64,000 bases of DNA from an uncultured Bdellovibrionales bacterium. Lineage in GTDB: Bacteria; Pseudomonadota; Alphaproteobacteria; Micavibrionales; GCA-2720935. This document shows positions 6,486 to 64,000 of this stretch, in pieces (the stretch's first letter is position 1; every line of letters starts with the position of its first letter). Under the pieces are notes generated by a model. It did not search any database. It saw only the letters and a list, made by a program, of their open reading frames with translations, and was not told the origin of the DNA. The DNA lies in the NCBI GenBank assembly GCA_964351525.1, contig CAYGOD010000001.1, positions 78,534 through 142,533 of the forward strand. The letters are read 5' to 3'. The position numbers were made by a program, and so were the translations under genes.

Positions 6486-6671
6486 GTTATTTCTTGGAAT
6501 AATTTATTGAAGGATATGATAATCATCGTTGCTAGGAAAGTCTGCGCAATATCAACTTATTATGACTGATATTTGTTAAGATTTCACTATAATATATGCA
6601 TCATTTATGATGATGTTTTTTTTGGTGATAATGCTGTTGCATTAAAGTGCATATATGCTAAATTCGATTTT

Positions 6672-7067
6672 ATGTTGAAACGTCACCTAGATATCTACAC
6701 AAATGCCATCCATGCGATGGTATTATTGGCATGGTTTTTTAGTGCGCTTATTCCGGCAGGCTATATGCCGTCTTTTAAAACAGACAATCAAAGTTTTGCT
6801 AGTTTTGACATTGTTATCTGTACGGCTTATGGCTTACAGACAATTACGTCGGATGCCCTTGATCGCTCTGATCAGGATCATAAAGAACAGACAAAAGACA
6901 CACGCTGTGATTTTGTAAAAACAGCATCACAGACCGCTTCTGTGACCCTCTTTAGTCATGATGTAATCGCCTATGGTTATAACTTTGATCAAATCACCTT
7001 AAGTCAATTCATCCCCACTATTTCCAAAGATTGGTCTGCTCAAGGGCCACCCTCTAAGGGCGTTTAA
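6672..7067 (+). CDS. DUF2946-like small membrane protein
   Basis: N-terminal helix ending in LIPAGYMP, followed by IVICTAYG, as remembered for DUF2946. The ATG at 6672 is preferred over the TTG-extended track ORF at 6573. Confidence 0.4.
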   Translation: MLKRHLDIYTNAIHAMVLLAWFFSALIPAGYMPSFKTDNQSFASFDIVICTAYGLQTITSDALDRSDQDHKEQTKDTRCDFVKTASQTASVTLFSHDVIAYGYNFDQITLSQFIPTISKDWSAQGPPSKGV

Positions 7068-7128: not shown

Positions 7129-8184
7129 ATGCTTACATTTTTAACAAAAAAACTACAAAAAACCGCCATCATGACATCATGTTTGGTGGCTCTGCCGATT
7201 GCTACGGCAAATTACGCTATGGCTGATGGATATTCGTCTGCCGATACACACGCCCCGATTGGTGTGATGGGTGATCATGCCCATAAAACGGGGGAATTCA
7301 TGTTCTCTTATCGTTACATGAAAATGGAGATGAACGATAATTATAGTGGGGACAGTAAGGTCACAAATGCTCAAGTGCTGAATGACTTTATGGTTACCCC
7401 AACGGATATGACCATGGAGATGCATATGTTCGGCGGTATGTATGGTGTTAGTGATGATCTAACCGTTATGGCTATGGTGCCGTACATCGATAAATCAATG
7501 AATCATTTAACCCGTATGGGCGGCACTTTTCGTACCACGGCCAAGGGCTTCGGCGATGTTAAGTTAGGCGGTCTTTATACGCTTTATCAAGACGGTGCGC
7601 ATAACCATGAGGGGCGTTCGGAAACCAAAACGTTACTCCTTAATATGGGCCTTAGTCTTCCAACCGGCAGTATTGACGAACGCGGTACAACGCCAGCGGG
7701 CACAGATCAAAGATTGCCCTATGCCATGCAATTAGGTTCGGGAACGGTTGATCCGACAATCGGGCTAACGTATACAGAGGCCAAGGCCGATTTCTCGTGG
7801 GGCGCACAGGCTTTAACAACGGTGCGTTTTGGTAAAAATGACGAGGGATATCGTTTGGGTAATGAGTATCAAATGACGGGGTGGCTTGCGAAACCTCTCA
7901 GTGATGCTTTTAGTATCTCTGCACGTTTAGATGGTAAGGCTTGGAAAGATATCAAGGGTGCAGACGGCCAGTTAAACCAAGCGGTTATTGCAACGGCACG
8001 TCCTGATTTACGCGGGGGATATCGTGTCAATGCGAACTTGGGCGTTAATTATCTTCACCTTGACGGTCCAATGAAGGGGCATAGATTGGCGGCTGAATTT
8101 GGCATGCCCGTTTATCAAAATCTTGATGGTCCGCAGTTAGGCACAGATTACAACTTCACGCTGGGTTGGCAATATGCATTTTAA
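7129..8184 (+). CDS. Outer-membrane beta-barrel protein (MetA-pathway/'transporter' family-like)
   Basis: Signal peptide (…ATANYAMA), alternating beta-strand pattern, and a C-terminal aromatic residue (…GWQYAF). The HAPIGVMGDHAHKTGEFMFSYRYM motif is recalled from this family. Confidence 0.5.
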   Translation: MLTFLTKKLQKTAIMTSCLVALPIATANYAMADGYSSADTHAPIGVMGDHAHKTGEFMFSYRYMKMEMNDNYSGDSKVTNAQVLNDFMVTPTDMTMEMHMFGGMYGVSDDLTVMAMVPYIDKSMNHLTRMGGTFRTTAKGFGDVKLGGLYTLYQDGAHNHEGRSETKTLLLNMGLSLPTGSIDERGTTPAGTDQRLPYAMQLGSGTVDPTIGLTYTEAKADFSWGAQALTTVRFGKNDEGYRLGNEYQMTGWLAKPLSDAFSISARLDGKAWKDIKGADGQLNQAVIATARPDLRGGYRVNANLGVNYLHLDGPMKGHRLAAEFGMPVYQNLDGPQLGTDYNFTLGWQYAF

Positions 8185-8295: not shown

Positions 8296-8383
8296 GGGGA
8301 GGTGGCTGAGTGGTTTAAGGCGCACGCCTGGAAAGCGTGTGGGGTGCAAGCCCTCGAGAGTTCGAATCTCTTCCTCTCCGCCA
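8296..8383 (+). tRNA. tRNA-Ser (anticodon GGA), long variable arm, encoded CCA
   Basis: Acceptor stem GGGGAGG/CCTCTCC (one G-U pair). D-arm GCTGAGTGGTTTAAGGC. Anticodon stem-loop CACGC-CTGGAAA-GCGTG. There is a long variable arm, a T-arm GAGAGTTCGAATCTCTT, and a terminal GCCA. Confidence 0.9.
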
Positions 8384-53726: not shown

Positions 53727-56700
53727 TTACGGCACTGTTTGTCCTGTGTAATAACGGAATCCTGTACTTAATAAAGTACCATTAAAGGCTGTTGATGGTT
53801 CACCTACAGTAAGAGAACCTTGAGCATTGGTAAAGAAGGCACAATTGTCGCCGCCTGACCAGCGGTTGCCTTCGAGGGCGGCTGGTGATGTACCGCTACC
53901 CAATAGATTTTCATCTAACCATGCCCTTACACGTCTTAGGGTAAAGTCATATTCAAAGGTAAGCGTATAGCTGCCTGCTATGAAGGAGGCCGTCGGGACA
54001 TCAAGGAAAGCAAGGTCAGTATCGGGTGTCGCGTTTCCACCTTCACCGCCGCGAATTCTAAATACATTATCAATGGCATTAAAGCCAACGAATTGTCCTT
54101 GCCCAGCGCCGCCACATTCAAAGATTAAACCAGAAGGGCTTACTGGGATGGTTAGATCAAGCGCCATAACATAAGTGCCCGCAGTTGGTATTGTTACACC
54201 ACTTCCTTGAACATTGGCTTCATCAACATTGCCATCTGGAGCTGTGATATTGCGCGTTAATGTTAAGGTTCGTTCTAAGTTGACTGTTTCAAAGTTAAGG
54301 TCTGTTGATGTAAGGGCCGCGGCATTATTACTATTAAGATCTTGAATGGCACCCAGAGGCCATGTGATCTCATAATTCTCTGCATACTCTAGATCTGTGC
54401 TTGGATTAAGTGTAATCATAGTACCCGATACAGTGACCTCAGGTGAAGCCAATGTGTAAGAAACAGTACTAGAGCCATCATCGGTATCTGTTAGGGTAAT
54501 TGTTCCAATTACGGCAATGTTTTCATCAAAATTCAGCACAATGTTGGCATTACGGGCAATTTGTGTCGCCCCATCTGCGATATTTGCGCCCGTAAAGAGC
54601 GGTGGGGTCGTATCATTTGACGTAGTGAAATTTAAATTCCCAGATGTGATGCCAGCAAAATCATTACTATTAACATCTTCAATGACACCAGATGCAATGG
54701 TCACATCATAATCGGTGGACAATTCTAGATTCGTTGTTGGGTTCAACGTTAGGGTTGATCCAACGATAGAAATTTGTGCATCCCCAATGGGAATAATGCG
54801 GTTGTCGGTGCCATCAGTTGTGTCTGTAATAAAGATATTACCAAGTCCTGCTTGTATCGTTTCATTAAATGTCAGAACAATATCACTGGCAGACGCAAAT
54901 GCAGGATCATTATCAACAGGGCTAGACAGGGTCAAGCTTGGCGGCGTTGTGTCATTGATAGGGAGTGTCACATCCGTATAGGCAGTGACCGCATCAAGGC
55001 TGTTTGTTGTGCCGATAATCGTGCCACCATTGAGGTCTAAATCTTGAATGGTGAGGCTGGTTGATCCGACATCGGCGGCAATAAAGACATGACGAAAGAC
55101 AAGCTGTGTCGGTGTACTTGCTCCAACATTATAAGCGAAGCTGCGAGGATTTGCCCCGACAAGACTATTAATGAAGGGGGCACCAGCAACCGTGACGGGC
55201 TGTGTAAAGGTTAGTCTTACATCGGCATTATTTCCTATAAATTGAGGACCTGTGATTAAGGCGGGCGTTACGTTGATGAAGGGCGCTGCCTCGGATCCAA
55301 TAGGCGGATTGGGGTTGATTAAATCAAGATTTGTAAAGGCCTCTTCTTGACGTGTTTCAAGGGCTGGATTAACCAGCAATGAGGTCACACCACTAGCGAT
55401 TGTCAGGCTGACGACATCGCTTTGGTTGCCACCAAGGGTCGCGACACCGACATCGGGTACAACATTAACCTGACCTGCACGGACTTGTATCGTCGTTGTT
55501 GTACCATCATCTGTGATGTCAATATCCGTTCCGATCAAGTTAACCATACCACCTGGAACATTAACGGTTCTTATACCGCCGCTACCTGATATGAATTGTA
55601 CGAACCCGCCATTTGTTGCTGTGACTGTCAATGTCGTATTACTGAATTCTAGAATAACATCGCCGCCGCCAGATGCAGAAATATTCGCGATGGCACCGTT
55701 ACTAAAGTTAATAATACTAAAATCACCATTAGGAACGGTTATGACAGTGTTAAAGGGTAAGTTCACGCCCGATGGTGTCGCGGCCCCGCCAACGATAAAG
55801 GGCAGGCCAATACTGGTGGCATCAAATTGTGCGCTAACAATAACAGTATCATCAACTTTTAAACGTTCTTCAACGCGGATACGGTTCTCACGGCGTACTT
55901 TTTCGAAAATACGTGAACGCATAGAATCGTTTCCACTAGCTGACCTAATATCTTCCAGAACAAGATTAGGATCTTGAGGATCATATAGTGGCATACGATA
56001 TTGGAAGGCCAGTTCAGAACCATCACGTCCACCATTTTCATCTATTAAAGCCCCCCTAACAACGAAATTATCGTTTACGCTATATTCAGCACTTAGCTCA
56101 AGCCCCCGAATGTCATCATCGGTTTCACGGAAATAAGTATAGCCTTTGCCAAAAATACTAAGTTCAGGTAAGTACGAGAAGGTATAACCAAGTTCAATGT
56201 CATAGCCTTCAAGGGCGCGCTCTTCATATTTACGACCAGCACTATCAATGCGGCTATCTTTGAAATCACTTAAAGGGTAATAGTAATTGGCAGCAAAGTT
56301 TAAATCTTTTGCTTTTGCATCAATACCCAAACTCATGCGCGCATGATTATAGGGGAATTGATGATCATAAAAGATATTGGCACCAAGAAGATATTTTTCA
56401 TCTTCTGTAAGATAACGATAGGCGGCACCGACATTGATTGTGTGACGGTTTTCATCGTCATCAATATCAACGCTTTGCTCGTTAACGATCCCGCCGCCTT
56501 GTAAGAAAATATTGTGACGTAGGTCGGCGGATTGATGAATGGGTTGTGTCAAAAGAGCACTAAAATATGAGTTCTCAAAATTATTGAGATTATATTCAAG
56601 CTCCATATGGCGCAGGGCATAAAGATCACTTTGTCTAGCCAATGCAAGGCCAGAGTCTATTAAACCTTTAGCGCCAGATATCATGAAATTATCAGCGGTG

Positions 56701-57812
56701 GTCATCAGAATGGCATCATCTAATATATCAGTTTTAGTACCGACAAACATTAAATCTTCAATCAAGCTGTCGATTGTTGCGCGCAACGCCTTATCCAAAT
56801 TATTTTGAACATGACCAATGAAGCGTGCGCCCGATCCTTGTTCTTCTGCCTGTGCGGTAATTATTTCCCCGTGTTTAACTTTGCTATTCAGGAAAGATGT
56901 TAAATATGCACCGCCCGCATCTTTAAAGAGATCACGGCCTAAGGTTAAAAGCTCGGCGCGCAGGGTTTCCTCTCCTTCACCAGTATTCATGCCATTTCCA
57001 ACATTGCGTAGGGCATCAATGAAACGCTTGTGCGCTTCGTCATATTCGGCGTTTTTAGGGGGCGTTTCTATAATATATTGCTCAGCCTGATGGGCTTGCT
57101 TGAGAATAGTGTCATAGTGTTGGTCATAGCTGTTTGAGTATCTATCCGGCACTATATTATAACCTGTGTCAGAGATAGGAATTTCTTCAAACTCTTCTTC
57201 TATTTGCCTTTCAAGCGGTTTGCCGAATATCTTGAGAACAAGAGGGTTTTCCTCTGTATGAACAATACGAGCAAGCTTTGTGTGTTGTGTTGGGGCTATA
57301 GCTGGCGCGTCCATCTTATCCATAGGCGCTTGCTGTTCAGTTTTCTGTATGTTAAAGAGCGACGCAGGTAGGTAATCTTTGCTGGTTATAAAACACTGCA
57401 TATGATTTTGACGCACATAGTCACATAATTCCTCTGACTGTAGGCTTGATAGATGAGAAATTTCTAAGTTATGTTCGTTAAAACCTGACGGTGTTTGGTA
57501 GGCATTGACCCACAATTGATCGCGGCGGATTTCTTGACGCATGAGCGGTGGAACGCTTTCGAAGAAGTGCTGTGCCTGCATTAATGAATTAAACATGCCT
57601 ATGCGAATTGAGATGATCTCATCTGAACTTTTAACGTGCGCACTTATCCCCATCACTAGTGTGATAAGTATAAATAGCATAAGCGTTTTTATTTTTCTTA
57701 AAACCAAGGTTCGACTTCTGTGTATTCTGGTTAATAAATGCTTGCGGCATTTTGGCCAAGAAACGGCCAGATAAAATGCGACTATAAGAAGTAACAGCAA
57801 AATACGTGCCAA
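53727..57812 (-). CDS. Giant inverse-autotransporter-type adhesin: SPOR-like domain - IAT beta-barrel - Ig-like (Big_5-type) repeats - LamG/ConA-like C-terminus
   Basis: The SPOR-like segment is ISIRIGMFNSLMQAQHFF…CDYVRQNHMQCFI. The barrel block is GANIFYDHQFPYNHARMSLGIDAKAKDLNFAANYYYPLS…GYDIELGYTF. TPPS/TPPL-led Ig-like modules repeat. The C-terminal lectin-like region is GLIFECGGAGQGQFVGF…. The start is uncertain (TTG at 57812 or ATG at 57680). Confidence 0.7.
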   Translation of the reverse strand: MARILLLLLIVAFYLAVSWPKCRKHLLTRIHRSRTLVLRKIKTLMLFILITLVMGISAHVKSSDEIISIRIGMFNSLMQAQHFFESVPPLMRQEIRRDQLWVNAYQTPSGFNEHNLEISHLSSLQSEELCDYVRQNHMQCFITSKDYLPASLFNIQKTEQQAPMDKMDAPAIAPTQHTKLARIVHTEENPLVLKIFGKPLERQIEEEFEEIPISDTGYNIVPDRYSNSYDQHYDTILKQAHQAEQYIIETPPKNAEYDEAHKRFIDALRNVGNGMNTGEGEETLRAELLTLGRDLFKDAGGAYLTSFLNSKVKHGEIITAQAEEQGSGARFIGHVQNNLDKALRATIDSLIEDLMFVGTKTDILDDAILMTTADNFMISGAKGLIDSGLALARQSDLYALRHMELEYNLNNFENSYFSALLTQPIHQSADLRHNIFLQGGGIVNEQSVDIDDDENRHTINVGAAYRYLTEDEKYLLGANIFYDHQFPYNHARMSLGIDAKAKDLNFAANYYYPLSDFKDSRIDSAGRKYEERALEGYDIELGYTFSYLPELSIFGKGYTYFRETDDDIRGLELSAEYSVNDNFVVRGALIDENGGRDGSELAFQYRMPLYDPQDPNLVLEDIRSASGNDSMRSRIFEKVRRENRIRVEERLKVDDTVIVSAQFDATSIGLPFIVGGAATPSGVNLPFNTVITVPNGDFSIINFSNGAIANISASGGGDVILEFSNTTLTVTATNGGFVQFISGSGGIRTVNVPGGMVNLIGTDIDITDDGTTTTIQVRAGQVNVVPDVGVATLGGNQSDVVSLTIASGVTSLLVNPALETRQEEAFTNLDLINPNPPIGSEAAPFINVTPALITGPQFIGNNADVRLTFTQPVTVAGAPFINSLVGANPRSFAYNVGASTPTQLVFRHVFIAADVGSTSLTIQDLDLNGGTIIGTTNSLDAVTAYTDVTLPINDTTPPSLTLSSPVDNDPAFASASDIVLTFNETIQAGLGNIFITDTTDGTDNRIIPIGDAQISIVGSTLTLNPTTNLELSTDYDVTIASGVIEDVNSNDFAGITSGNLNFTTSNDTTPPLFTGANIADGATQIARNANIVLNFDENIAVIGTITLTDTDDGSSTVSYTLASPEVTVSGTMITLNPSTDLEYAENYEITWPLGAIQDLNSNNAAALTSTDLNFETVNLERTLTLTRNITAPDGNVDEANVQGSGVTIPTAGTYVMALDLTIPVSPSGLIFECGGAGQGQFVGFNAIDNVFRIRGGEGGNATPDTDLAFLDVPTASFIAGSYTLTFEYDFTLRRVRAWLDENLLGSGTSPAALEGNRWSGGDNCAFFTNAQGSLTVGEPSTAFNGTLLSTGFRYYTGQTVP

Positions 57813-57971: not shown

Positions 57972-59846
57972 TTAATAAAACAAGAATTCGACCGCTTGGT
58001 TCATGCGTTGATCATGTGTATCTCTTGAATTCCAGTCTTCAAGCTGGAAGTCGCCTGTTTTAAATTCATTGAACAGGGAATTCACCTTGGTCGTCTTCAT
58101 GATTTCAGTGAATGTAGAGGTCGGTGTGAACCAATCTTTGTTACGTTCTTCGAATAACTCTAGAGACTTCTCAAATTCTGACATCTCGGCGGCTATACGG
58201 GCACGATCTTCGGGGGCTTGGTTCGTGTAACGCGCACGACGTGGTGTCAGCATAATCAAGACTGATTTTCTAAAATCACGTTCTGCCTTGCTAGAGAACA
58301 AGTACTGTAAAACAGGGACATCACCAAGGAAAGGAACGGAATCTCTTGAGCTTTCTGTCTCTTTTTCACTCAGGCCACTTAAGATAAGTGTTTCGCCAAA
58401 TTTCATGACAACATTCGCGTTTACGTTTGTGTTTGATGTATCTAAGCGGAATTCAAATTGAACAGAGCTGCTAGGTGATGTTAAGAAAGTACGCTCGGCC
58501 TCAACTTCTAATTTAATACGGTCACCGCTTAAAAATTCAGGGGTCACGCCCAATTTTACACCAATCTGTTTATTAACAGAAATAGAGGAGCCATCACCAC
58601 CAGAAACCGCGGCGGCAACAACATCAACACCTGAGAAGAACTCAGATTTTTCATTGGCAAGTGCAACTAAAGAAGGGCTGGCAAGGATTTCATTTCTGCT
58701 GTCTAGTGTATTGAAGATATTCAATGAATAATTAACAGCAGGTACAGAAATTAAGCTTGATACCGTTCTAGAGTTTGTATCGTTATTTGTTGGTGTTCTG
58801 TCATTAACATTATTACGACCAAAAGAAAAACCAGGAGTGTTTGTTAATTGATCGCCAAATTGTAGCTCAAGACCAGATAAAAGATTTAATCCCTTGTTAG
58901 AGCTAACATCTTCTTGTGTTCTAACGATAACGACATCAACAACCACCATATCGTCATTGACAAAATCTTCTTCAAAGTCATCATTATTTGATGTGGGTGC
59001 GGATCCCGGAATTGTTGACGGCGATCCACTTGGCAGAGCTTGTGTTATCGATGCCATTTGAAGGAGCTCTTCTTTATCTTGTGCGTGGAAACGTTCCCAT
59101 GACGCGATACGCCCATCCAAAAAGTCATATGTTTTTTGATCATCTTTAAAGCGATCAAGAAGCGCTCTGGCATCCGTTGGGTTGTCTAGTGCAGCATAGG
59201 TTAGGATAGAGGCACGATAGAATTTTTCTTTTTCAACAGGCCCTAAATCTAGATCTTTAATTTTATCTAATGATGCCTTGGTTGTTCTTGGGTCGCCCGC
59301 GTAATAAGAGGCGCGCGCCAAATCATATAGAATTTCTGGATCTGTCTCATCCATCATTGCCGCTGATGCTAGGGCTGATTGTGCTTGTTTAAACTGACGT
59401 TGATCAAGATGGGCAAGGCCTAGGTAATATTTTGACAATACATTGGTGTTATCAAATTTATAAGAAAGTTCATAGCCTTGTGTTGCAAATTCATAATTTT
59501 TTGCATCACCTTGTTTGGCCATCAAGTGATAGGTTAAGCCATTCATAAAATGAATGTGAGAATTACTGAGGTCTAGGCGTAGCGCCGTATTGAAAAATTC
59601 AGACGCTTTTTCTAGTTCACCATCATCCATTGCGGCGATACCTTCTGCGACAAGTAAACGGGTTTTACTATTCACCTTGTCATTGGGGATAAGGCTAGCC
59701 ATTTCTGTCTGCAAGCCCTGTGTTTGTGTCAAGGCAGAATTTTGATACAGGCTGTTAGAAGACCACTTTGATTGTGTGCCAGCTGTTTGACAGCCCATCA
59801 GGCTGATTGCCAAAGCACTGCATGCGATAATAGCAAATTTTTTCAT
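57972..59846 (-). CDS. Lipoprotein secretin with N-terminal TPR repeats (orphan)
   Basis: Lipobox ISLMGC. TPR-like repeats span about aa 60-230. The C-terminal secretin core is ETLILSGLSEKETES…VPFLGDVPVLQYLFS…VLIMLTPR. Confidence 0.75.
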   Translation of the reverse strand: MKKFAIIACSALAISLMGCQTAGTQSKWSSNSLYQNSALTQTQGLQTEMASLIPNDKVNSKTRLLVAEGIAAMDDGELEKASEFFNTALRLDLSNSHIHFMNGLTYHLMAKQGDAKNYEFATQGYELSYKFDNTNVLSKYYLGLAHLDQRQFKQAQSALASAAMMDETDPEILYDLARASYYAGDPRTTKASLDKIKDLDLGPVEKEKFYRASILTYAALDNPTDARALLDRFKDDQKTYDFLDGRIASWERFHAQDKEELLQMASITQALPSGSPSTIPGSAPTSNNDDFEEDFVNDDMVVVDVVIVRTQEDVSSNKGLNLLSGLELQFGDQLTNTPGFSFGRNNVNDRTPTNNDTNSRTVSSLISVPAVNYSLNIFNTLDSRNEILASPSLVALANEKSEFFSGVDVVAAAVSGGDGSSISVNKQIGVKLGVTPEFLSGDRIKLEVEAERTFLTSPSSSVQFEFRLDTSNTNVNANVVMKFGETLILSGLSEKETESSRDSVPFLGDVPVLQYLFSSKAERDFRKSVLIMLTPRRARYTNQAPEDRARIAAEMSEFEKSLELFEERNKDWFTPTSTFTEIMKTTKVNSLFNEFKTGDFQLEDWNSRDTHDQRMNQAVEFLFY

Positions 59847-60030
59847 TGTGATTATTCCCCGTCATTATTCTAAAGCAAAATGGCTGTATAATTTAGAACA
59901 TATTCGCTTTTGATTTCAAAGAAACTTATTGGCATCATGGATTTAGCGGCTGGAGATAGTTTTGTTCTTGTATGGCCAGGCACAATATTTTGTTTAAAAA
60001 GAGTCTCGAAAATAGTTGTATTATACAAAC

Positions 60031-60045
60031 TGTTATATTATAACA
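60031..60045. promoter_or_regulatory. Zur/Fur-type box TGTTATATTATAACA (perfect palindrome) just upstream of zur
   Basis: Read directly. It ends 7 nt before the ATG at 60052 and resembles the GTTAT-N-ATAAC core of Zur boxes. Confidence 0.7.
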
Positions 60046-60051
60046 TCACAC

Positions 60052-60486
60052 ATGCACACGAATAATACATTGATGACGCTCGCAAAACAATACTGCGATG
60101 ACAAGGGCTTGCGCTTAACACCGCCACGCTTGTATGTTTTGTCTATTCTTTCCACATCAAAAGAGCCGATGGGCGCTTATGATATTTTGGATAAATTAGG
60201 ACAACATATTGATCGCCCCAAACCACCAACGGCCTATCGTGCCATTGATTTTTGGCGCGAACATGGTTTCATCCATAAAATTGAAAGCTTAAACAGCTAT
60301 CTGACATGTTGTGAAGATCATAGTCATAAAAACGTCCACTTCTTGGTATGTGATGGCTGTAATGGTGTGCAAGAGGTGCATCAGCACGAGCATGAGGAAA
60401 AACATTTACCCGCCGGTTTTCTTGCCAAGAAAACAGTAACAGAAACGCACGGCACTTGTGGTACATGTGTCGATCAGGCGGCATAA
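60052..60486 (+). CDS. zur: Fur-family metalloregulator, Zur-like
   Basis: Contains LRLTPPRLYVLSIL…MGAYDILDKL wHTH and the Cys pairs CCEDHSH, CDGC and CGTC. The ATG at 60052 is preferred over the TTG-extended track ORF. Confidence 0.75.
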   Translation: MHTNNTLMTLAKQYCDDKGLRLTPPRLYVLSILSTSKEPMGAYDILDKLGQHIDRPKPPTAYRAIDFWREHGFIHKIESLNSYLTCCEDHSHKNVHFLVCDGCNGVQEVHQHEHEEKHLPAGFLAKKTVTETHGTCGTCVDQAA

Positions 60487-60530
60487 ATTATAGATAAAAT
60501 ATTGATCCATGTGATAAAGGAATTAAACAA

Positions 60531-61514
60531 ATGAGAATTGCATTTTGTGGAAAAGGCGGCAGTGGCAAATCAACAGTATCGTCATTAGTGGCAAAATATA
60601 TGGCTTCATTAAATAAGGATGTTTTGGTGGTCGATGGCGACATTAATCAACATTTGGGTGAAGCATTGGGCTTTACAACAGACGCGCTAAAAAAACAGCC
60701 AAAGCTAGGGATGGATTCATTGCCCTTAAGGGAGTTTGTAAAAGGCACAAACCAATATATCCCAGACGCTAATCATATAACAGAGTCATGCCCCGCTGGG
60801 CGTGGATCGGGTTTCATCCATTTTAATCAACCATCACCTATGTTTGATCACTATCAAATTGAAAAAAACGGAATTCGTTTCATGGGTCTTGGCGGTCATG
60901 ATGAAGGTGATGTGGGCACAACCTGTTATCATAAATTTACGGGGGCTTTTGGTATTTTTCTAAACCATCTTATTGATGGTAAAGGGCAATATCTTATTGG
61001 TGATATGTGTGCGGGGGCTGATCCATTTGCTTCTTCTGGTTTGGCATCGCGCTTTGATGCAATCTTTTTGGTTGTTGAGCCAACATTAAAATCGACCAAT
61101 GTTTATACGCAATGTCGTGAATATGCCGATATGTTTGATATAGAATTATTTGTGATTGGTAATAAGGTAGAAAATCAATCAGACATTGATTTTATTAATG
61201 AAAAAGCTGGCAATGATGTGATCGCCATGCTGCACAAATCTGATTATATCCGTAATATTGAAAAAGGTATAGTAGCGCCATTATCTGAGTTAGAAAATGT
61301 CAACTTAACGTGTTTACAAACGATCTTGGATAAAACAGACAGCCTGACCCGCGATTGGGATAAGTACCAAGAGATTGGTTTGAAATTCCACAAAGCCGCG
61401 GCGGAGGGCTGGGCGAATGCAATGTTTGGTCTTAATGTAATGGATTTCGTTGATCCTGATTTCTCTTATGACGATGTTATTGATATAACTGTAACAAAAA
61501 GAAAGATTGCTTAA
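60531..61514 (+). CDS. MinD/CooC-type P-loop ATPase (possible metallocentre/maturation factor)
   Basis: Deviant Walker A FCGKGGSGKST, then VVDGDINQ and GDMCAGADPF (CxC-less, CooC-like layout). Confidence 0.6.
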   Translation: MRIAFCGKGGSGKSTVSSLVAKYMASLNKDVLVVDGDINQHLGEALGFTTDALKKQPKLGMDSLPLREFVKGTNQYIPDANHITESCPAGRGSGFIHFNQPSPMFDHYQIEKNGIRFMGLGGHDEGDVGTTCYHKFTGAFGIFLNHLIDGKGQYLIGDMCAGADPFASSGLASRFDAIFLVVEPTLKSTNVYTQCREYADMFDIELFVIGNKVENQSDIDFINEKAGNDVIAMLHKSDYIRNIEKGIVAPLSELENVNLTCLQTILDKTDSLTRDWDKYQEIGLKFHKAAAEGWANAMFGLNVMDFVDPDFSYDDVIDITVTKRKIA

Positions 61515-62995
61515 TGACAACGCAAGCTGTCCAAAATCACCCCACAATCAAAAGTAATGACGATGACGTGCCATATCGTCTGCGTCCACGTATGCATGCG
61601 ATGGTTAAGGATGCTCTTGATAATAAAGCTTTGTTTTTTGATTTGGTAGAACAATTTGGTTCGCCGTTAAATGTTATCTTTCCTGAGATATTCTATCAGA
61701 AATATCAGCTCTTTGATGAAATGCTTGCTGGGGAGCATTTAAATTATCGTCTTTATTATACGTGTAAGCCAAACAGATCAAATGCCCTATTAACAGAGGC
61801 CGCATCTTTAGGGGCGTATGTCGATATCAGTTCTTTAGGCGAATTAAATGCGGCGCTTGATGCTGGCGTTAATCCAGAAAAAATATCGGCAACGGGACCC
61901 AAGAACAAAGCCTATATGGATGCGGTGCTTAAGCATCAAGCCTTATGCGTCATTGATAACTGGTTTGAGTTCGATTATGTCACGCAAAATGGCCAAGGAC
62001 AAAACCCGATCATGATACGCTTATCATCGCCACAAGATGGTGGTCCCGCACAAGATGATAGTTTCGGATTTCATTTCAATGATGTGCCGCGTTTAATAGA
62101 AGCCATTAAAGAACATGAGATCTCAGATTTTCATGGCTTTGCCTGTCACTATAGCGGGGCATTTGACAAGACACGTTTACGTCATATTGATATGGTTTTG
62201 AAAGCCAGTTTGATGGCGATTGATAATGGCGTGATGCCGTTGGCAATCAACATTGGGGGCGGTTATCAAGTTGGATATGTACAATCAAATCAAGAGTGGC
62301 AAGATTTTACAACGGCATTGAAAAAGGCAGTCATCGGCGATCATTCACCCGTGACCTGGGATAATGCGAGCATGGGTTTTCGCCTGCAAAACGGTAATCT
62401 CTCGGGCAGTGCTAATTTTGTAGATCACTATCAAAGCCGTACAGCAGAAAACCATTTGGAAAAAATACTTTATGAAACATTTGATGTTCTAGACGGTGGC
62501 TCTTTATTGGACTTCATCCGTGACAGCGGTTTATCACTTTATGTTGAACCGGGCCGTTCTTTGATGGATCAATGTGGTGTCACGCTTGCCAATGTCAATT
62601 TTGTTAAAAAATCAGCTAAAGGGAACACATTGGTTAACCTTGATATGCATCACGCGAATTTAAATGCTCATGCGTTCAAATATATGGCGGAACCGATTAT
62701 CTTGCACCGTCAGGATGATTTGCGTCAGGATGATTTGCCGATTAACACAGAAGGTGTTTTTTACTATGGGTCTTTGTGTTTTGCCTCTGATCTTATTACG
62801 TTCCACAAAACATATCCTGACCATCTGCCACAAAGTGGTGATCTGGTTAGTTTCATTAACACCGCTGGCTATCGCATGGATTTTGCTGAGTCTGAAATGT
62901 TACGCCATCCAAATGCAGAAAAAATATGTCTGACAAAAACAGACGGGGCATGGTCCTACTTCAAAGATAACGATTACAAGAAAGATCCAAAATAA
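61514..62995 (+). CDS. PLP-dependent decarboxylase, Orn/DAP/Arg decarboxylase (fold III) family
   Basis: Contains YTCKPN (PLP Lys), NIGGGY and EPGRSL. The start overlaps the upstream stop (TAATG). Confidence 0.75.
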   Translation: MTTQAVQNHPTIKSNDDDVPYRLRPRMHAMVKDALDNKALFFDLVEQFGSPLNVIFPEIFYQKYQLFDEMLAGEHLNYRLYYTCKPNRSNALLTEAASLGAYVDISSLGELNAALDAGVNPEKISATGPKNKAYMDAVLKHQALCVIDNWFEFDYVTQNGQGQNPIMIRLSSPQDGGPAQDDSFGFHFNDVPRLIEAIKEHEISDFHGFACHYSGAFDKTRLRHIDMVLKASLMAIDNGVMPLAINIGGGYQVGYVQSNQEWQDFTTALKKAVIGDHSPVTWDNASMGFRLQNGNLSGSANFVDHYQSRTAENHLEKILYETFDVLDGGSLLDFIRDSGLSLYVEPGRSLMDQCGVTLANVNFVKKSAKGNTLVNLDMHHANLNAHAFKYMAEPIILHRQDDLRQDDLPINTEGVFYYGSLCFASDLITFHKTYPDHLPQSGDLVSFINTAGYRMDFAESEMLRHPNAEKICLTKTDGAWSYFKDNDYKKDPK

Positions 62996-64000
62996 TGATA
63001 GCCAATCATATTACTGACCTTATTGGCAATACACCGCTTTTGAAGATCTCACCGGATGTTCATGGTCTTAAAAATGTGAATTTATACGCAAAAATGGAAA
63101 TGATGAACCCGTTGGGGTCCGTCAAAGATCGTATTGCGTGGGCCATGATTAAAGACGAGCTAGATGATTTGATTAAAAATGATAAAATGATTGTTGAGAA
63201 TTCTAGTGGTAATACAGCTAAAGCCATTCAAGCGATCGCTGGCTCATATGGTATTAAGTTCAAATTAATGACCACAATGGCAAAAGTAACTGAGCCAAAA
63301 GATGTTATGCGCGTTTTAGGGGCAGAGATAGAAGAGTTGAGCCAAGCCAGTACAGATTGTTTTGATCCGAATGACCCGAATGACCCCCAATATATTATTG
63401 AAAAATTCGTTCAAGAATCAGATGGCAAAGTCTTTTTCCCATCACAATTTACCAACCAGAAAAACGTCGATATTCACAAAGAAACAACAGGGCCAGAAAT
63501 CTTGGAAGATTTGGCGCGTGTCGATTGGTTTGTTGGCGGATTGGGAACGACGGGTTCAACCCGCGGCATTATTGAAGCCCTACGTGAGCGCGACAAAGAT
63601 GTAAAATGTTTGGGTGTTTGCGCCGAGAATTACGACTTTATTCCAGGGATCCGTAGTGCGGAACAAATGTGGGAAATAGGGTTATTTGATAAATCTCTTT
63701 ATCAAGAAATTACAACCATGCCAGCAAAAAATGCAGTGGATGCAATGATCGAACTTAATCAAAAGGCAGGGCTTTTATGTGGTCCGTCGGCTGGCGCGCA
63801 ATATGCCGCGATCAAAGATCATTTTGTCGCCAATCCCGCCACGAAAGAAACAAATGTCGTCTTTATCGCTTGTGATCGCATGGAGTGGTATATTTCGTAT
63901 ATTAAAAAATACCGTCCCGATTTGTTTAATTCACAAGAGAAGGCCGAAGACAGCTATACGAATTTCTATCCATCTGTAGAAAAATCACAAAATTGCCAGG
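62995..64000 (+). CDS. Cysteine synthase/CBS-like PLP enzyme (SbnA/CysK family), 3' end beyond the window
   Basis: Absent from the ORF track because no stop is reached. ATG at 62995 (TAATG overlap). Contains LIGNTPLL…KMEMMNPLGSVKDRIA (PLP Lys), SSGNTAKA, GTTGS and GPSAGA. I read the frame as open through 64000. Confidence 0.75.
   Translation, partial: MIANHITDLIGNTPLLKISPDVHGLKNVNLYAKMEMMNPLGSVKDRIAWAMIKDELDDLIKNDKMIVENSSGNTAKAIQAIAGSYGIKFKLMTTMAKVTEPKDVMRVLGAEIEELSQASTDCFDPNDPNDPQYIIEKFVQESDGKVFFPSQFTNQKNVDIHKETTGPEILEDLARVDWFVGGLGTTGSTRGIIEALRERDKDVKCLGVCAENYDFIPGIRSAEQMWEIGLFDKSLYQEITTMPAKNAVDAMIELNQKAGLLCGPSAGAQYAAIKDHFVANPATKETNVVFIACDRMEWYISYIKKYRPDLFNSQEKAEDSYTNFYPSVEKSQNCQ

Follow-up and report, generated by a model that had tools for sequence, protein, structure and literature searches.

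The zur operon and its predicted operator

The DNA analysed here is a stretch of 64,000 nt from contig CAYGOD010000001.1 of an uncultured Bdellovibrionales bacterium, referred to below as the window. Near its 3' end lies a gene for the zinc uptake regulator Zur, preceded by a palindromic operator and followed by the genes of a CooC-like ATPase, a Y4yA-family enzyme and a CysM-like enzyme. The last two depend on pyridoxal 5'-phosphate (PLP), and the Y4yA-family enzyme has the fold of the ornithine/diaminopimelate (Orn/DAP) decarboxylases. The features of the locus are as follows.

60016–60044, + strand: putative sigma-70 promoter, assigned by eye; -35 TTGTAT (60016–60021), 17-nt spacer, -10 TATAAC (60039–60044)
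60031–60045, no strand assigned: Zur operator, TGTTATA-T-TATAACA, a 7-1-7 palindrome covering part of the putative spacer and the -10 hexamer
60052–60486, + strand: zur, zinc uptake regulator, 144 aa, Pfam FUR
60531–61514, + strand: CooC-like SIMIBI P-loop ATPase, 327 aa, with the deviant Walker A motif GKGGSGKS and Cys132-x-His134
61514–62995, + strand: Y4yA-family fold-type III PLP enzyme, 493 aa, Orn/DAP-decarboxylase fold
62995–64000, continuing past the window, + strand: CysM-like PLP beta-replacement enzyme, residues 1–335 of 438 in the window

The sequence TGTTATATTATAACA at 60031–60045 is a perfect 7-1-7 inverted repeat with a T at its centre. Letter for letter, it equals the core of the proteobacterial Zur box published as GAAATGTTATA-N-TATAACATTTC (PMC4219657), and the same core is carried by the experimentally supported Zur sites of Caulobacter (PMC4176598). 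The pattern TGTTATANTATAACA, searched for with at most one mismatch, occurred once in the window against 0.02 occurrences expected from shuffled sequences. Meanwhile, the looser matches with up to three mismatches were found at chance level, so that the window holds no further Zur box beyond chance. The perfect palindrome singled out in a preliminary description of this DNA is therefore borne out as a Zur box by its exact published core and its single occurrence; the distance from the palindrome to zur, given there as 7 nt, was off by one and is 6 nt (60046–60051), after which the ATG of zur starts at 60052.

The putative promoter was not returned by the consensus promoter scan, which accepts only -10 hexamers with T as their sixth base. 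If the promoter has been placed correctly, transcription would start at approximately 60051–60052 and the zur mRNA would be leaderless or nearly so. It should be noted that a degenerate Zur-box-like site with three mismatches is present at 60036–60050, half-overlapping the main box and shifted 5 nt to its right. Clearer overlapping double boxes are seen in two of the related loci described below (L002 and L006), and two Zur dimers may bind.

That zur is a real gene of this kind, as the preliminary description had proposed, is upheld by the FUR domain and by the top PDB matches of its product, E. coli Zur 4mtd (101 bits) and Xanthomonas Zur 7dh7. The top NCBIfam model is also Zur, with 113 bits, which is under the cut-off of 167. 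The protein has two CxxC pairs, and His, Cys, His and Glu positions align with the sensing site of E. coli Zur; we take the aligned residues to have the same sensing roles. Since the operator match, its placement and conservation, and the presence of a cognate Zur all agree, the membership of this operon in the Zur regulon is supported at the level of sequence, and zur is apparently autoregulated.

The gap between zur and the ATPase gene is 44 nt, while the junctions between the ATPase and Y4yA genes and between the Y4yA and CysM-like genes each consist of a TAATG stop/start overlap. By these signs zur and the three genes that follow it form a co-oriented and translationally coupled operon, which agrees with the arrangement described previously. 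The four family assignments made at that time are likewise confirmed by the Pfam, NCBIfam and PDB matches.

Products of the genes downstream of zur

The top PDB sequence match of the ATPase is CooC1 (3kje), and the Cys-Tyr-Cys of CooC1 aligns with Cys132-Tyr-His134 of the window protein. Neither Cys132 nor His134 varies among the 27 orthologues or in the paralogues of the ATPase, and the GKGGSGKS motif is invariant among the aligned orthologues. The AlphaFold2 model of the protein (predicted local distance difference test score, pLDDT, 88.6) has CooC1 as its top fold match (E 1.4e-12), ahead of NifH and MinD, and shows an additional C-terminal helical region of ~75 residues. The Pfam and NCBIfam matches belong to the MinD, CbiA and ArsA families, the minD model scoring 30 against a cut-off of 202; neither a CobW Pfam match nor a G3E/CobW domain with a CxCC motif was found in the protein. 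The ATPase thus looks like a candidate metal-handling NTPase, a putative metallochaperone in the place that is usual for the COG0523 GTPases.

Paralogous ATPase genes are present in L030 (6921–8042), L032 (9720–10748) and L034 (8882–9898). Their products are 22–25% identical to the window ATPase, keep the Cys-x-His motif and have His/Cys-rich C-terminal tails, such as HKHGHGCGHHHHGPECNH, as nickel metallochaperones do.

The second enzyme carries the name Y4yA family in some NCBI records. In its alignment, the PLP-binding Lys85, the stacking His212, the motifs GGG248-250 and EPGR345-348 and the catalytic residues Cys422 and Tyr453 are invariant. The residue after Cys422 is Leu, Phe or Met across the family, Phe in the window protein, whereas the best LysA matches have Cys-Glu at the position of this Cys-Phe. 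The score with the LysA model TIGR01048 is 100.4 bits against a cut-off of 297.9. As the score is below the equivalog cut-off and no acidic residue follows the catalytic Cys, LysA was ruled out as the identity of this enzyme. The family is made up of 247 clusters (50% identity, E ≤ 1e-30) among 1.84 billion representatives. Its namesake, y4yA, adjoins the cysteine synthase gene y4xP in a gene group of Sinorhizobium fredii, and its role is given in the literature as unknown. In one protein of 996 aa (P0484), a Y4yA-like decarboxylase is naturally fused with an FAD/NAD(P)-binding domain (PF13454), which hints at a flavoprotein acting on the substrate or the product of the decarboxylase. NCBIfam has no model naming the Y4yA family, the ATPase or the uncharacterised island proteins described below.

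The third gene runs off the window and was completed from L001, a longer contig of identical sequence, which reveals the region past the window end. The full protein has 438 aa and carries a C-terminal rhodanese domain beyond the window end. Its top PDB match is CysM (2bht), and it scores 191 against a cut-off of 344 with the cysKM model and 174 against 413 with the CysM model. The score with the SbnA model TIGR03945, 153.6 bits against a cut-off of 349.95, is lower than those with the CysM and CysK models. The PLP-binding Lys44, the SGNT Asn-loop and the Gly-rich phosphate loop are invariant in the alignment of this CysM-like/rhodanese fusion and align with those of CysM 2bht. Equally invariant is an insertion relative to CysM, S119-x-C122-x-DPxDPNDP. 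In the rhodanese domain, Cys397 and the Gly three residues later are invariant in 14 sequences, forming a C-x-x-G motif (CAVGHKS in this protein). The mean column identity of the fusion in its alignment is 69%, and with more than 7,800 clusters at 90% identity it is far more numerous than the Y4yA family. A stand-alone CysK or CysM was ruled out for this enzyme on the grounds of the scores below the cut-offs, the Cys122 insertion and the rhodanese fusion. In the source annotations the two PLP enzymes go by the names "diaminopimelate decarboxylase" and "cysteine synthase B". As judged by the alignments, the catalytic residues of all three enzymes are intact.

Conservation of the module and its predicted zinc control

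A genome scan with the ATPase alignment gave 28 loci, 27 of them full-length, nearly all from Micavibrio-like or alphaproteobacterial metagenome-assembled genomes (MAGs); the closest relatives are labelled Micavibrio sp. MAGs. The order ATPase, Y4yA, CysM-like/rhodanese is kept in 25 of these 27 loci. A further 80 loci came from a metagenome scan with the Y4yA alignment. In the 108 non-redundant loci, the CysM-like/rhodanese gene directly follows Y4yA in 86 of the 87 with sufficient sequence. The ATPase gene is found no more than 3 kb upstream in 75 of 90, 38 of 56 have a SufS/CsdA-like cysteine desulfurase gene in the vicinity, and 18 of 32 contain a Fur-family gene. The preliminary description had called a CooC/MinD-class ATPase in the position of a COG0523 GTPase unusual; it turns out to be a conserved feature and not a one-off of this genome.

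The module ranges, over more than 100 loci, from Micavibrio-like alphaproteobacteria and MAGs labelled Bdellovibrionota to cyanobacteria and Obscuribacter-type MAGs and to apparent Firmicutes. The culturable Micavibrio aeruginosavorus (L038) is among the carriers. The apparent Firmicute contig has genes for FUR, the ATPase, Y4yA, the CysM-like/rhodanese enzyme and a SufS-like protein. The Planktothrix locus consists of an uncharacterised gene, Y4yA, CysM-like/rhodanese, SufS-like, GNAT and FUR genes, and the ATPase is missing from it.

Zur boxes are strongly concentrated at the module. With up to two mismatches allowed, 42 of the 47 boxes found in 1.22 Mb of loci lie within 300 nt upstream of module genes, which corresponds to 0.26 boxes per kb in the upstream zones against 0.0047 per kb elsewhere, an enrichment of ~56-fold. 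Boxes with 0–2 mismatches stand upstream of module genes in 28 loci. In the alphaproteobacterial loci the box typically lies 35–65 nt before the ATPase gene (about a dozen cases), and it precedes this gene regardless of whether zur is upstream, downstream, divergent or missing from the locus. Where an oppositely oriented gene splits the operon, extra boxes are found before Y4yA. Zinc control of the module in the alphaproteobacterial lineage is thus well supported in silico.

Beyond the alphaproteobacterial clade, perfect palindromes of other kinds stand before the operon, AAAATGAT(T/A)ATCATTTT and ATGAAAAnnnTTTTCAT. Both resemble the published mycobacterial Zur boxes (PMC4298942) and also the published deltaproteobacterial Fur boxes (PMC545781), the shape of ATGAAAAnnnTTTTCAT being on record for either kind of box. 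The regulator of Planktothrix is closest to S. coelicolor Zur, while the PDB similarity of the apparent Firmicute regulator is ambiguous. Control by a Fur-family regulator is therefore general for the module; zinc as the signal is established in silico for the alphaproteobacterial clade only and is likely for the cyanobacteria.

As regards the positions of these palindromes, AAAA[TC]GAT(T/A)ATCATTTT, perfect or with one mismatch, occurs at ~8620 in L037 and upstream of the FUR gene in L079, L080, L087, L094, L107 and L112. Palindromes of the ATGAAAAnnnTTTTCAT type stand before the SufS-like gene in L039, L042, L046, L047 and L051 and before the ATPase gene in L106. In the apparent Firmicute loci the operon starts with a Fur-family gene, and the palindrome is located between the ribosome-binding site of this gene and a -10-like box.

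Genes surrounding the module

In L001, genes for an adaptor and a pump of the resistance-nodulation-division (RND) type follow the CysM-like/rhodanese gene 115 nt on, and no terminator-like site was found in these 115 nt. The pump is of the HAE1/multidrug type and not of the CzcA type (264 versus 94 bits). An RND adaptor and pump likewise follow the module in L006.

In the alphaproteobacterial relatives the neighbours of the module are likewise related to zinc. They include ZrgBCE-like systems with ATP-binding cassette (ABC), FtsX and DUF3299 components, a metallothionein together with a cation diffusion facilitator (CDF) transporter, DUF2946 proteins, cytosolic proteins rich in Cys, and membrane proteins of the MerC-like kind whose tails are His-rich. 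DUF3299 is the ZrgE of the Zur-induced zrg operon (PMC9817125).

The last three kinds of protein form the trio of a Micavibrio-type island located upstream of the ATPase gene, namely at 8325–9932 in L030, 4795–6227 in L038 and 602–2419 in L021. The Cys-rich protein of the island starts with MC[RK][WF]HK, contains CC and CxxC motifs and belongs to no Pfam family. DUF2946 genes are the first genes of the zinc islands in related Micavibrio-type loci. When the island genes were sought in the window, the search gave only a weak DUF2946-like open reading frame at 6573–7067 on the + strand (tblastn E 6e-7 against the island DUF2946 protein), with no Zur box nearby. It is followed at 7129–8184 on the + strand by a gene whose product has the look of an outer-membrane beta-barrel with the C-terminal end ...WQYAF.

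The tailoring genes that accompany the module differ by lineage and encode methyltransferase, flavin amine oxidase, GNAT, 2-oxoglutarate-dependent hydroxylase-like and AsnB-like proteins. Such variable tailoring genes, and likewise the flavoprotein–Y4yA fusion, appear to be of the kind typically met in clusters for small-molecule biosynthesis. L086 (4523–17480), and also L093 and L097, carry an extended form of the module that resembles a biosynthetic cluster. The gene order in L086 starts with an Asp/Arg-hydroxylase-like gene, a gene of 512 aa without an assigned function, the ATPase, Y4yA and CysM-like/rhodanese genes, and continues with SufS-like, flavin amine-oxidase-like, GNAT-like and FUR genes, a second ATPase gene and a methyltransferase gene.

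Directly upstream of zur are two genes on the - strand: one for a TPR-secretin protein (57972–59846) and one for a 1361-aa adhesin-like protein with IAT_beta and Big_5 domains (53727–57812). They have no obvious tie to the zinc operon.

Proposed function and alternative explanations

The reading that we prefer, and put forward tentatively as a real possibility, is an autoregulated, Zur-repressed zinc-starvation operon that makes a small zinc ligand with sulfur and nitrogen donors, either exported or used inside the cell. With zinc present, zinc-loaded Zur would bind the operator overlapping the promoter and the operon would be off; with zinc absent, zur and the downstream genes would be transcribed. 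A SufS-like cysteine desulfurase would supply the CysM-like/rhodanese enzyme in most relatives, and in the window genome the desulfurase would be encoded elsewhere. The rhodanese Cys, the SufS-like partner and Cys122 together suggest a persulfide relay into the CysM-like active site, in which sulfane sulfur would pass as a persulfide from Cys397, possibly through Cys122, to the PLP-bound aminoacrylate and yield a sulfur-containing amino acid. The nearly constant position of the CysM-like/rhodanese gene directly after Y4yA suggests that the decarboxylase acts on the product of this enzyme or supplies its substrate, and the Y4yA decarboxylase would turn the relay product, or a related intermediate, into an amine. 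We infer in this way the direction of the relay, the order of the enzyme steps, the final product as a small S/N-donor ligand and its binding of zinc. The ligand would then be exported or used in the cell; in the window genome the exporter would be the adjacent RND pump, whose multidrug type fits an organic product. Through its Cys-x-His motif and the hydrolysis of ATP, the ATPase would bind zinc and load or unload the ligand. The term metallophore for such a product is plausible but unproven.

Several points weigh against this reading. With plain O-acetylserine or O-phosphoserine as acceptor, a persulfide-dependent cysteine synthase would only rebuild the cysteine that SufS had broken down (Cys to Ala and S0), a futile cycle, so that another acceptor has to be assumed. 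The window operon has no SufS-like gene, and a search of the whole 64 kb found none. The ATPase is missing from some loci, and we know of no precedent for a CooC-type switch ATPase in a metallophore pathway. No importer dedicated to a metal–ligand complex, whether a TonB-dependent receptor or a binding protein, was found to be consistently linked, the large neighbouring reading frames being mostly unrelated; this weakens the version with a secreted zincophore. The apparent Firmicute and Planktothrix loci have no transporter adjoining the module at all. Outside the alphaproteobacteria, an assignment of the regulating metal from the operator shape was rejected, as the palindromes fit Zur and Fur boxes alike. 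Finally, the product, the substrate and the binding of a metal cannot be established from sequence alone.

The main rival is an intracellular zinc allocation system with nothing secreted, which we regard as unlikely but as deserving serious attention. Here the ATPase would be a Zur-regulated zinc metallochaperone in the role of COG0523, and the PLP and rhodanese enzymes would either be served by it as clients or feed or deplete a pool of cytosolic thiols acting as a zinc buffer, in a manner similar to the link proposed between ZigA and histidine ammonia-lyase in Acinetobacter. Such a role agrees with the invariant Cys-x-His at the metal-binding CxC position of CooC1, with the His/Cys-rich tails of the paralogous ATPases, and with the Zur box standing most often directly before the ATPase gene. 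The stop/start overlaps, which suggest stoichiometric complexes, the lack of an adjoining transporter in the two lineages just mentioned, and the Cys-rich cytosolic proteins and metallothionein among the neighbours point in the same direction. However, Planktothrix and others that lack the ATPase keep Y4yA, CysM-like/rhodanese and SufS-like genes, so the enzymes would have to work without it. A zinc requirement is neither known nor evident for the PLP enzymes, in which Cys122 with the DPxDPNDP segment is the sole candidate site, and the lineage-specific tailoring enzymes suit small-molecule biosynthesis better than chaperoning. An assembly system for metal–sulfur cofactors or clusters would place the same proteins differently, with the SufS-like enzyme supplying sulfur, the rhodanese carrying it and the CooC/Mrp/NifH-like ATPase serving as scaffold or insertase, so that a metal centre would be built or repaired when zinc is scarce. 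The combination of desulfurase, rhodanese and SIMIBI ATPase does recall the Nif, Suf and CooC maturation systems, but this explanation is improbable: it leaves the most tightly linked pair, Y4yA and the CysM-like domain, without a role, NifH-type proteins have paired Cys ligands that are missing from the ATPase (its Cys160 is not conserved), and among the neighbours there is no conserved metalloenzyme that could be a client.

The preliminary description had compared the two PLP enzymes with those of staphyloferrin B and ethylenediamine disuccinate (EDDS) synthesis. In such a diaminopropionate (Dap) route to an aminocarboxylate metallophore, an SbnA-like enzyme would make the Dap precursor and an SbnH/AesC-like enzyme would decarboxylate. 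A CysK-family PLP enzyme and an Orn/DAP-fold decarboxylase do stand side by side under Zur control, y4yA and y4xP are adjacent in S. fredii as well, and the SbnA model does match the CysM-like enzyme. Nevertheless, this match is under its cut-off and under the CysM and CysK scores, CysM is the top PDB match, and the rhodanese fusion and the SufS-like partner point to the insertion of sulfur and not of an amine. Moreover, in the 10 Pfam-annotated loci there is no SbnB/AesB-like protein of the ornithine cyclodeaminase family and no IucA/IucC. The SbnA-like identity and the analogy with staphyloferrin B and EDDS were therefore given up, and we rate this route as poorly as cluster assembly. Of the genes that the preliminary description had proposed to look for downstream of the window, only the exporter genes were found, in the form of the RND adaptor and pump; SbnB-like and synthetase genes are absent from the annotated loci. 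The least probable explanation, which we consider highly improbable, is that housekeeping genes (a MinD/ParA-type ATPase, lysA and cysK or cysM) follow zur by chance and that the box regulates zur only. All three proteins do belong to large housekeeping superfamilies, and the source annotations quoted above are of this kind. Yet the lysA, cysKM and minD scores are all far under the equivalog cut-offs, and ordinary cysteine or lysine biosynthesis, which the preliminary description had named as the outcome that would speak against it, is disfavoured by the fact that neither PLP enzyme reaches the trusted cut-off for LysA or CysK/CysM. The Leu, Phe or Met after Cys422 in place of the Glu of LysA, the invariant rhodanese fusion and Cys122 insertion, the gene order conserved across phyla, and the Zur boxes directly before the ATPase gene in relatives that have zur elsewhere also speak against a chance arrangement.

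Returning to the preferred reading of a zinc-ligand operon, its most far-reaching form would join two parts: a Cys-x-His family of CooC-class ATPases acting as a Zur-regulated zinc metallochaperone, and a persulfide-fed SufS/rhodanese–CysM/Y4yA route to a new thiol- or thioether-amine zinc ligand, both conserved across predatory alphaproteobacteria, cyanobacteria and apparent Firmicutes. That both parts hold together is possible, though on balance doubtful.

The usual list of zinc-starvation parts comprises ZnuABC, ribosomal-protein paralogues, COG0523 GTPases and opine zincophores. The module described here would add to it a conserved, multi-phylum unit under Fur-family control, with Zur clearly indicated in the window lineage and a Zur-like regulator in Planktothrix. 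With it would come a candidate zinc chaperone from another NTPase family, unrelated to the first, and a candidate route to a sulfur-based metal ligand. The occurrence of the module in the culturable M. aeruginosavorus, and apparently in Firmicutes, makes tests of expression, metabolites and biochemistry feasible.

Comparison with known systems

Full-text literature searches found no description of the module, and term searches in the first 300,000 characters of a 2024 metallostasis review and in the ZepA paper gave no mention of it. Its regulatory part is that of a standard Zur operon, whereas its cargo matches no characterised system. The operator core TGTTATA-N-TATAACA and the Zur architecture are the same as in the Zur regulons of E. 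coli (znuABC, zinT, pliG) and Caulobacter (znuK, znuGHI). In proteobacterial Zur regulons the operator likewise lies over the promoter and zur may likewise be placed inside its own regulated operon; the cargo there, however, is ZnuABC, ribosomal-protein paralogues or COG0523 proteins instead of a CooC-like ATPase and two PLP enzymes.

The window ATPase shares the SIMIBI fold and the deviant Walker A motif with CooC1 (3kje), the nickel-inserting ATPase for CO dehydrogenase, and with UreG and HypB. The metal-ligand motif of CooC1 is found at the same place in the sequence, with Cys-x-Cys in CooC1 and Cys-x-His in the window protein. The window ATPase differs from CooC1 in its extra C-terminal helical region and in being under Zur (zinc) control without a link to nickel: CO dehydrogenase genes were absent from the 10 Pfam-annotated loci, and neither urease nor hydrogenase genes were found near the module. 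The His-rich tails of the paralogous ATPases resemble those of HypB, UreE and CooJ. Like the COG0523 proteins ZigA, ZagA, YeiR and Zng1, the window ATPase is a Zur-regulated P-loop NTPase with Cys/His ligands encoded at the same place in the operon, and it may work in a similar way; those proteins, however, belong to the G3E CobW family and carry CxCC, while the window ATPase belongs to the MinD/CooC family and has no CxCC.

The pairing of a CysK-family PLP enzyme with an Orn/DAP-fold decarboxylase is shared with the pathways of staphyloferrin B (SbnA/SbnB/SbnH) and EDDS (AesA-D), the latter of which is also Zur-regulated. The module differs in having neither an SbnB/AesB-like partner nor an NRPS-independent siderophore (NIS) synthetase in the 10 Pfam-annotated loci, and it contains an enzyme that is CysM-like, fused with a rhodanese and linked to a desulfurase, features that together argue for sulfur and not for Dap chemistry. 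The module also differs from the opine zincophore systems (CntL/CntM), as neither a nicotianamine-synthase-like enzyme nor an opine dehydrogenase is present among the operon products or the annotated neighbours. By analogy, the module can be compared with the CysO–CysM/MoeZR system of M. tuberculosis, where a CysM-type enzyme is fed by a rhodanese-charged protein carrier and not by free sulfide, the protein-bound sulfur reportedly serving for cysteine synthesis. The carrier in that system is a ThiS-like thiocarboxylate, while in the window module the persulfide of a fused rhodanese would be used, and the enzyme has a decarboxylase, an ATPase and a metal regulator encoded alongside it. The Zur-regulated MacB-like ABC systems, ZrgABCDE of Vibrio and PA4063-4066 of Pseudomonas, have homologues (ABC ATPase, FtsX/MacB permease and DUF3299/ZrgE) directly downstream of the module in many relatives, whereas the window copy has the multidrug-type RND pump in that position.

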